Both the position numbers and the translations under genes were made by a program. Under the pieces are notes generated by a model, which ran no database searches, had not been told where the DNA came from, and saw nothing but the letters and a program-made list of their open reading frames with translations. DNA of 60,642 bases. Origin: a virus. Its lineage: Duplodnaviria > Heunggongvirae > Uroviricota > Caudoviricetes. Where the stretch lies: IMG/VR virus record IMGVR_UViG_2721755676_000007; one strand, 5' to 3'. Positions 41,338 through 42,191 of this stretch are shown piece by piece (the stretch's first letter is position 1; every line of letters starts with the position of its first letter).

Positions 41338-41366
41338 GTCACCGGAGGAGTTCAAACTCCGGTGAC
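41338..41366 (-). other. Perfect 10-bp stem-loop between the HNH-like gene and ybcN
   Basis: GTCACCGGAG-gagttcaaa-CTCCGGTGAC; no clear U-tract on either strand. Confidence 0.4.
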
Positions 41367-41408
41367 TTAATTATGGCAAGTTGATTGTTGAAAATCAATT
41401 TAGTGGAT

Positions 41409-42191
41409 TTAGGCGCAATACAAAGGATCATTAGCAGCTCTAATACCGCCCTGAATCGCAAGCCCTGTATGGCAATTTGACATTGAGCATGATTGCCATC
41501 TGTGCAAGGGACCTCCATTAATCGAAACTTCCAGCAGATCTTTATCTCCTTTCATCCTGACCCCTTCATACAACATATCAAGACGCTCAACAATCAATCC
41601 TGTTGGAGGTTCCATTTTTAGAACGAGGGCAAACTCTCCTGGCCCACGTCGTATTGTTATACGCGGGCCGGTACACTCCACATCCCAATTGTCTGATTTA
41701 GCTTTCCATTCATTTTCATCTATCAGTAAAGTCTCCTTACCAATAGAATTACAGAAAATTCCTGATAAAAGCATCGGTCCATGTGGTATGGGTGAAGGTT
41801 TCACAGAAAGAATGGGTTGTTCGTTGACTACAATCAAATTTTGACAGTTATGAAACGTCACTCCTGCAAATTTTACTGTTATAGGCTCATTATGAAAATC
41901 AAACATTTCATTTGCAAAACCAGCCTGTAAGCACTTGGGATTTCTGTCAGCTATTTCCACTGTCTGTGCTGAAAGTCTACCACGAGCTCTTTTTTGATTG
42001 CATTGGGAGCAAAGAAGTGTCATTCCATTCGGATCATGTATTTTGGCATCAACGAAGTCAGGTTTAAAATGCTCATAATCATAAAATCCAAATCCACAAA
42101 TTACACAGCCAAAGCCGCACCTTTGCCTTATCTGACGTTTTATTGTCTCAGGTATTCTTCTTGAGAGCCCGTGTTTATTAATATTGTCCAT
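41409..42191 (-). CDS. Hypothetical protein with N-terminal HNH / His-Me-finger-like Cys/His motif (260 aa), AT-rich accessory gene
   Basis: CGFGCVICG...YDYEHF...LLCSQCNQKRARG motif; no recognisable C-terminal domain; replaces ybcL-ybcM position of DLP12. Confidence 0.5.
   Translation of the reverse strand: MDNINKHGLSRRIPETIKRQIRQRCGFGCVICGFGFYDYEHFKPDFVDAKIHDPNGMTLLCSQCNQKRARGRLSAQTVEIADRNPKCLQAGFANEMFDFHNEPITVKFAGVTFHNCQNLIVVNEQPILSVKPSPIPHGPMLLSGIFCNSIGKETLLIDENEWKAKSDNWDVECTGPRITIRRGPGEFALVLKMEPPTGLIVERLDMLYEGVRMKGDKDLLEVSINGGPLHRWQSCSMSNCHTGLAIQGGIRAANDPLYCA

Follow-up and report, generated by a model that had tools for sequence, protein, structure and literature searches.

An HNH gene carried as prophage cargo is a candidate one-gene phage defense

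The stretch of DNA analyzed here, referred to as the window (60,642 nucleotides [nt] in full; IMG/VR virus record IMGVR_UViG_2721755676_000007), includes a DLP12-type cryptic lambdoid prophage of Escherichia coli. Within this prophage, an intact open reading frame (ORF) of 260 codons plus stop (positions 41409 to 42191, minus strand) encodes a protein that joins an N-terminal HNH nuclease domain to a C-terminal all-beta domain, and we refer to it as the HNH-beta gene. The gene is a good candidate for a new one-gene phage defense. We propose that its product is a stand-alone, single-protein nuclease directed against phages (or mobile elements) and carried as prophage cargo, in which the HNH domain is gated by a new sensor domain. 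The defensive role is read from genomic context, and we give the proposal as a whole an even chance of being right. It draws on the HNH fold, the conserved active site, the fixed domain architecture, the absence of a partner gene, the cassette structure of the locus, and the defense character of the slot that it occupies. An original prediction, made from the sequence alone, had put forward an anti-phage or exclusion function for this ORF; the genomic context (a cassette, its slot, and a patchily distributed stand-alone gene) lends support to that suggestion, while the gene falls into no catalogued defense family.

The exact 260-residue product is encoded on 985 public contigs, where the only names attached to it are “hypothetical protein” and “HNH endonuclease.” It matches phrog_6544, a family of unknown function, over its full length (E = 3e-141), and 307 full-length homologues were found.

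The N-terminal 84 residues are an HNH domain with a conserved active site

AlphaFold2 modeling of the full-length protein from a 40-sequence alignment gave a predicted local distance difference test score (pLDDT) of 91.8 and a predicted template modeling score (pTM) of 0.84, the latter suggesting that the modeled protein folds as one compact unit. The closest structural neighbors of the N-terminal domain (residues 1 to 84; positions 41940 to 42191, minus strand) were the HNH domains of immune nucleases, namely, Cap5, which was the top match, IscB/Cas9, McrA and other type IV enzymes, and PtuB. A search of the viral structure library BFVD returned HNH proteins only, including NinG entries and free-standing homing endonucleases. 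At the sequence level, the protein scores 14.4 bits against the Pfam HNH family (PF01844), compared with a gathering cutoff of 21.4 bits; a distant family member (P0168) reaches 25.0 bits, and 11 of 60 divergent members match HNH at E ≤ 1e-3.

We then compared 78 homologues drawn from many phyla. H41 is conserved in all 75 aligned sequences and is preceded at position 40 by E, H, or D; the cysteines at positions 29, 32, and 61 are near-invariant, and position 64 is either C or H. Position 65 is His in 58 homologues and Asn in 15, the Asn marking an enterobacterial clade with an HNN variant of the motif, and the middle “N” position of the motif is occupied by G56 in that clade and is variable elsewhere. 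The window protein itself carries the putative zinc ligands C29, C32, C61, and C64, the putative catalytic residue H41, and N65. The residue features expected of the HNH superfamily (a catalytic His preceded by D, E, or H, a metal-binding N or H at the third position, and paired CxxC zinc-ligand motifs) are present, and conservation of this kind is what purifying selection on an active nuclease leaves behind. The Cys/His cluster noted in the original prediction lies in this ORF and is conserved across the 78 homologues to a degree far above chance, and its reading as an HNH/His-Me-finger fold is in agreement with the structure model, the structural neighbors, and the residue conservation. Thus, the assignment of residues 1 to 84 as a bona fide HNH domain of the beta-beta-alpha-metal fold is well supported. 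The domain is basic, with a family median isoelectric point (pI) of 8.9.

The C-terminal all-beta domain appears to be a novel fold

Residues 85 to 260 (positions 41412 to 41939, minus strand) are predicted to form an all-beta domain of 17 strands, which was also modeled on its own (pLDDT, 83.7; pTM, 0.77). Among the 78 homologues, P85, N160, an aromatic residue (W, F, or Y) at position 169, and D170 are near-invariant. The original prediction could recognize no feature in this 170-residue region, and neither could we: no Pfam, NCBIfam, or PADLOC model matched the domain, sequence searches of the PDB, whether started from the protein itself or from a family profile, gave spurious matches only, and its fold had no match among solved structures. 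An internal duplication was not detectable either (hhalign probability, 2%). The beta-domain therefore appears to be novel and unlike any solved fold. It is acidic throughout the family (median pI, 5.05), and the pairing of a basic HNH domain with an acidic beta-domain fits an effector joined to a domain that does not bind DNA.

The two domains form an obligate pair in a widespread, patchily distributed family

An exhaustive search with a profile of nothing but the beta-domain recovered 1,543 cluster representatives, 792 of them at E ≤ 1e-10. In nearly all of the 1,543, the beta-domain starts at residue 84 to 89, directly behind an HNH-sized N terminus, indicating that the two domains are an obligate pair. 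Some members carry extra C-terminal tails. Among 60 long or divergent members, a SEC-C zinc motif was found in 16 (including P0138 and P0269), TPR repeats in one, and a CxxCxxCC domain in one (P0147 and P0174 are such tail-bearing members). PADLOC matches of long members to E2 of CBASS (cyclic oligonucleotide-based antiphage signaling systems), to E1-E2, and to PDC-S12 were discarded, since they were due only to the 20-residue C-terminal SEC-C motif and carry no information on the core of the protein.

Relatives occur in Proteobacteria, Cyanobacteria, Planctomycetota, Verrucomicrobiota, Bacteroidota, Chloroflexota, Streptomyces, and Saccharibacteria and in methanogenic and methanotrophic Archaea; many of them, including those of Cyanobacteria, Streptomyces, and methanogens, lie in non-phage chromosomal contexts. 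This patchy spread over bacterial phyla and some Archaea is as expected for horizontally traded genes. In viruses, the gene was present in 1 of 50,697 records of sequenced phage isolates and on about 100 viral contigs, most of them predicted prophages, and we count this combination of rarity in isolates yet recurrence in prophages in favor of a defensive role. Among 5,426 complete E. coli genomes, 79 carry the gene as alleles that are at least 99% identical, and 2,940 carry the ylcH-ybcN flank, so that the gene is found in about 2 to 3% of prophages with this backbone.

The gene is a self-contained cassette without a conserved partner

Comparison by blastn with K-12 and six sister prophages showed that the shared flanks stop at position 41398 (covering 41150 to 41398) and resume at position 42315, which defines a swapped module of 916 bp (positions 41399 to 42314, minus strand). 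The module consists of the HNH-beta ORF and 123 nt of its own upstream DNA. K-12 DLP12 homology reaches position 41398, leaving 10 nt between the stop codon and the prophage backbone, and the module holds one ORF with no room for a second gene. As the original prediction had observed, the ORF is more AT-rich than the neighboring nin genes: its GC content is 0.407 overall and 0.318 at third codon positions, compared with 0.500 and 0.579 for ybcN and 0.532 and 0.587 for rusA. On the other side of the cargo, ybcK is more AT-rich still (GC content, 0.361).

In K-12, the cargo position is occupied by ybcL-ybcM. The original prediction had the HNH-beta gene, together with the 107-codon ORF upstream of it, take the place of ybcL-ybcM-ylcH; ybcL-ybcM has indeed been replaced, whereas a ylcH-like ORF of 33 codons is retained as a backbone gene at positions 41213 to 41314 (minus strand). 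The implied pairing with the 107-codon ORF (positions 42366 to 42689, minus strand) did not hold up. Its product matches Pfam P22_AR_C (E = 5.8e-14) and is 80% identical to residues 100 to 202 of a 202-residue P22AR-C protein in sister prophage L098; since it aligns only to the C-terminal half of that antirepressor-like protein, the ORF is a 5′-truncated remnant. Homologues of the 107-residue product occur in phages that lack the HNH gene, and in a Klebsiella phage a different, unrelated ORF precedes the HNH homologue. A two-gene system was thus rejected: the upstream ORF is a truncated remnant that is part of the conserved flank and can be present where the HNH gene is missing.

Nor did the homologues point to another partner. 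In 77 genome loci the commonest neighbor family occurred in 4, and among 30 distinct prophage-borne variants the commonest neighbor accompanied 7; the recurrent prophage neighbors were ordinary early or nin-region genes, such as those for DinI, Pol III theta, orphan methyltransferases, and NinB. No hidden partner gene was found in the 77 genome loci (ORFs of at least 70 codons) or in 62 prophage loci (ORFs of at least 50 codons). Pairing with a methyltransferase as a type II restriction-modification system was likewise rejected, as neither the module nor the neighboring window genes encode one, and the methyltransferases found near homologues, in 3 to 5 of the 30 variants, are nin-region genes.

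The cargo slot and its surroundings exchange known defense genes

To define alternative cargo, we sampled genomes that contain the ylcH-ybcN flank. In the interval bounded by the P22AR-C remnant and ylcH, which is the exact place of the HNH gene, sister prophages carry either a HEPN protein (PDC-M28A) with a 133-residue partner or a 169-residue hypothetical protein. Over the wider region from the replication genes to ylcH, the cargo of sister prophages includes PD-Lambda-1 (E = 2e-198), a 643-residue SIR2 protein (best PADLOC SIR2 model, E = 5e-63), an alpha/beta-hydrolase, and, in K-12, ybcL-ybcM, and in some genomes the region is empty. A DUF4041 protein with a C-terminal nuclease-like domain, of the PD-Lambda-1 kind, was validated as a defense by Vassallo et al. 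(PMC9519451). The region from the replication genes or ybcK to ylcH-ybcN is a cargo-swapping hotspot in DLP12-type prophages (window positions 41399 to 44129 compared with L015, L096, and L098 to L103), and the E. coli slot with its surroundings accordingly shows the generic mark of a defense locus, a variable hotspot shared with known defense genes. The 169-residue protein, the HEPN partner, and the hydrolase had no PADLOC match and may be further defense candidates.

Traces of loss were found as well. In the SIR2-bearing prophages L096 (positions 3242 to 3719) and L102 (positions 4501 to 4978), the last 50 nt of the HNH ORF are fused to a P22AR-C fragment, corresponding to window positions 41399 to 41458 joined to 42462 to 42636. 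This fusion is a deletion scar, indicating that the HNH gene was once present in these prophages and was then lost. In E. coli ST12468 (L097, positions 3001 to 5038), the gene is split in two by IS3.

Among homologues in other backgrounds, the one in a Pseudomonas prophage lies on the strand opposite its early-gene neighbors, and the inducible prophage that gave rise to Klebsiella phage ST846-OXA48phi9.2 also carries a homologue. An Alcaligenes homologue (L110, positions 6001 to 9338) lies in a small island at a prophage end beside an McrA-like type IV HNH protein (245 residues; PADLOC mREase_IV, E = 3.5e-7) and a DUF4238 protein. DUF4238 is reportedly a single-gene defense in work on P2/P4 hotspots, and the Alcaligenes DUF4238 protein had no PADLOC match. 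A Comamonas homologue sits in a chromosomal islet. Across phyla, immediate neighbors include Mrr, GmrSD, AbiV, a GajB-like helicase, Cas1, Phd/YefM, and integrases, mixed with housekeeping genes, and we regard the association with defense genes in these other phyla as only suggestive.

Proposed mode of action and alternative explanations

In the mechanism that we propose, the basic N-terminal HNH domain would act as the DNA-cutting effector, and the acidic, compact beta-domain would, as a regulatory or sensor module, silence the nuclease for as long as the lysogen is uninfected. Upon infection, the beta-domain would recognize a cue supplied by the phage, for which a protein or a nucleic-acid structure is the likeliest candidate, and this recognition would release or assemble the nuclease, which would then cut DNA and block the invader. 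We infer the nuclease activity, autoinhibition, trigger, lysogen expression, and defense phenotype of this scheme from the features described above. No packaging, homing, or other housekeeping phage role could be assigned to the protein, and its conservation is strong, so that the original prediction is refuted on neither count.

Several observations weigh against the proposal. The sensor role of the beta-domain is one that we purely infer. Both in the window and in prophages of enterobacteria, the gene points the same way as the early/nin operon, so that its expression could be limited to induction and its product could serve the phage. The sigma-70-like promoter within the module (positions 42223 to 42252, minus strand; CTGATA, 18 nt, TAAAAT, with a TG before the −10 element [extended −10], about 30 nt ahead of the ATG) counts as a candidate and no more: a consensus scan found such sites in the region to be no more numerous than expected from shuffled sequence. 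Outside Enterobacteriaceae, many neighbors are housekeeping genes, and the neighbor counts carry no background control, so that they do not establish defense-island enrichment. No Pfam or NCBIfam model covers the protein, and no PADLOC (2023) model recognizes it beyond weak HNH similarity. The searchable literature mentions neither the protein nor its phrog and yielded no phenotype report, and a search for family peptides in the DefensePredictor data gave nothing specific. In the DefensePredictor screen, a separate single-gene E. coli candidate, “HNH1” (WP_252151320.1; 301 residues), gave no protection.

A broader version of the proposal, which we advance tentatively and regard as somewhat doubtful, is that HNH plus beta-domain proteins constitute a previously unrecognized family of one-protein immune nucleases extending from Bacteria into Archaea. 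The C-terminal domain would then be a new fold that directly senses an invader cue and gates the nuclease, and it would represent a new sensor class and not a variant of the SAVED, SRA/EVE, or STAND type.

The location and orientation of the gene favor the first alternative, that the protein is a DNA-metabolism nuclease of the ninR region that serves the phage life cycle in recombination, replication restart, or host-DNA processing, with induction driving its expression from pR along with that of Orf/YbcN, RusA, and NinG-type genes. The gene does belong to the nin region and runs in the direction of ybcN (Orf family), ybcO, and rusA; the region is known for genes of DNA metabolism, and in some Orf proteins an HNH domain is fused on (PMC4118853). 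There are also weak HNH-level matches to NinG/Rap (phrog_5034, E = 0.52, and the NinG entries of BFVD), and in prophages of Enterobacter, Klebsiella, and E. coli, including a second E. coli allele with 62% identity, the homologue is without exception placed behind the replication genes and ahead of the DUF1367/NinG/Q block. However, a gene that is present in only the small fraction of same-backbone prophages given above (about 2 to 3%), and that is replaceable by unrelated genes or by nothing, does not behave like a core life cycle gene. The prophage with the divergent E. coli allele (L104) encodes a true NinG, so the HNH gene does not replace it, and the near absence of the gene from sequenced phage isolates and the many members in non-phage chromosomal contexts argue in the same direction. 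We consider this explanation unlikely.

A second alternative is a constitutive restriction-type nuclease similar to type IV enzymes, in which the beta-domain reads a phage-specific DNA modification or structure and host DNA is spared by the choice of substrate. The protein would then be a new type IV-like enzyme with a new reader domain and not an autoinhibited effector that awaits a trigger. EcoKMcrA, ScoMcrA, TagI, and VcaM4I are among the closest structural matches of the HNH domain, neither a partner nor an immunity gene is required by such enzymes, in agreement with the stand-alone arrangement, and the Alcaligenes homologue lies beside an McrA-like gene. The family-wide acidity of the beta-domain, however, is unusual for a domain that reads DNA, and the HNH domain, being N-terminal, stands at the opposite end from that of McrA-type enzymes. 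On balance, we judge a type IV-like nuclease to be quite unlikely.

The sharp boundaries of this compact, AT-rich insertion between conserved genes could also be explained by a selfish element, that is, a free-standing homing endonuclease or cassette-spreading nuclease from which neither host nor prophage would benefit. Free-standing homing endonucleases of phages have the HNH fold more often than any other, such proteins are among the BFVD matches, and the near identity of the E. coli alleles (at least 99%) is consistent with recent spread. Against this, Pfam detected no NUMOD, IENR, AP2, or HTH (helix-turn-helix) module, the C-terminal domain being acidic and all-beta; the slot holds unrelated alternative cargos in place of simple presence or absence; the family is conserved full-length across phyla in single-copy chromosomal contexts; and the deletion scars and insertion sequence (IS) disruptions point to loss and not to invasion. 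We hold a selfish nuclease of this kind to be very unlikely.

Finally, a prophage-stabilizing nuclease toxin (addiction or exclusion) or a cellular nuclease unrelated to phages would account for the conserved catalytic site, and 2 of 132 immediate neighbors in other phyla are Phd/YefM antitoxins, another 2 of 132 are HTH_3 regulators, and a divergent HTH_3 gene adjoins the Comamonas homologue, but no antitoxin or immunity neighbor is conserved, the E. coli module leaves no space for one, and the patchy, low-frequency distribution speaks against a housekeeping role, so that this explanation is most unlikely.

Flanking features of the cassette

Each conserved flank of the module contains a perfect hairpin. 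The one 3′ of the HNH-beta ORF (positions 41336 to 41368) has a stem of 12 bp (41336 to 41347 paired with 41357 to 41368), a 9-nt loop, and a z score of −4.9 relative to shuffled sequences; the original prediction had correctly noted a perfect stem-loop here but described it as a 10-bp stem at 41338 to 41366. This hairpin lies within K-12 DLP12-homologous DNA and is therefore a feature of the conserved backbone, not of the cargo. On the gene strand it is not followed by a run of U residues, and a terminator scan did not call it. Its backbone origin, the missing U tract, and the scan together rule it out as the gene's own intrinsic terminator. The second hairpin, with a perfect 10-bp stem (positions 42322 to 42347), lies just downstream of the 107-codon ORF in the conserved left flank and marks the other edge of the module.

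The start codon of the 107-codon ORF is preceded, at a distance of 28 nt, by an IS10 insertion (positions 42718 to 44046, plus strand) whose target is duplicated over 9 bp (ACCATAGCT). None of the 5,426 complete E. coli genomes has the junction of this IS10. The RNA-OUT of IS10 (positions 42763 to 42832, minus strand) was the only known RNA family detected in or around the cassette, and its position shows that the outward promoter of IS10 (pOUT) faces the 107-codon remnant and the HNH cassette. IS10 pOUT can switch on adjacent genes. Because it is aimed at the cassette, the strain from which the window derives may express the cassette abnormally.

The order of genes on the minus strand is emrE, ybcK (serine recombinase), the cargo, the ylcH-like ORF, ybcN, ninE, ybcO, rusA, ylcG, and quuD, followed by a porin gene on the plus strand. 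This porin gene (nmpC/ompC-like; positions 37996 to 39153) is intact in the window and is interrupted by IS5 in K-12. At the loci of the divergent alleles in E. coli (L104, positions 6792 to 7477) and Klebsiella (L107, positions 6786 to 7510), about 700 nt without a called gene follow the homologue. In an Enterobacter prophage (L005, positions 8806 to 10185), the homologue is followed directly, within the same stretch of nin-region cargo, by genes for a 459-residue RES-domain protein and for two large proteins that have no Pfam domain, and none of the three had a PADLOC match.

Significance

If the defense proposal is correct, the HNH-beta gene would add a compact (260-residue), partner-free nuclease system with a new sensor fold, the trigger of which escaper phages could reveal, to the defense repertoire and would provide a function for about 1,500 sequence clusters that are now labeled hypothetical. 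The region from the replication genes to ylcH-ybcN of DLP12-type lambdoid prophages would then be a defense-cargo hotspot that can be mined. If it is not correct, the proteins would still be a conserved nuclease family, and the practical consequence would be small. About half of well-chosen defense candidates validate (PMC13092281). Because many such candidates exist, the HNH-beta gene would come as no surprise to the field; a single-gene nuclease as prophage cargo is a known kind of thing, and its C-terminal domain is apparently novel.

Comparison with known systems

Closest in overall design is Cap5 of CBASS, which also combines an N-terminal HNH domain with a C-terminal regulatory domain. 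The window protein, however, has no SAVED domain, and no cyclase (CD-NTase) accompanies it; it is encoded by a single-ORF module without a recurrent neighbor. It resembles McrA-type type IV enzymes in being a one-polypeptide nuclease but differs from them in its reversed domain order and in its acidic non-HNH domain of a different fold, and no relationship is seen at the sequence level. None of the reader domains of type IV enzymes (SRA, EVE/PUA, the McrA N-domain, or the sulfur-binding domain) is present in the window protein.

Similarity to PtuB, of Septu and retron-associated PtuAB systems, is confined to the HNH core and is not significant. PtuB works with the ATPase PtuA, whereas the neighbors in the window are the P22AR-C remnant and ylcH/ybcN, and the loci of homologues contain no conserved ATPase neighbor. 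With lambda Rap/NinG, the window protein shares a ninR neighborhood, a Cys/His nuclease motif, and weak profile and structure matches, but there is no significant homology (E = 0.52 for phrog_5034), and the HNH gene is optional cargo and not a backbone gene. Free-standing HNH homing endonucleases carry a DNA-binding module (NUMOD, IENR, AP2, or HTH) that the window protein lacks, and the adjacent immunity gene that characterizes colicin- and pyocin-type HNH DNases has no counterpart here, as no small neighbor is conserved. PD-Lambda-1 and other single-gene prophage defenses (Vassallo et al., 2022) are likewise stand-alone genes in an accessory region that combine a nuclease-type effector with uncharacterized regions. 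PD-Lambda-1, which occupies the same region of a sister prophage, is unrelated to the HNH-beta protein in sequence and domain content and has been validated experimentally.

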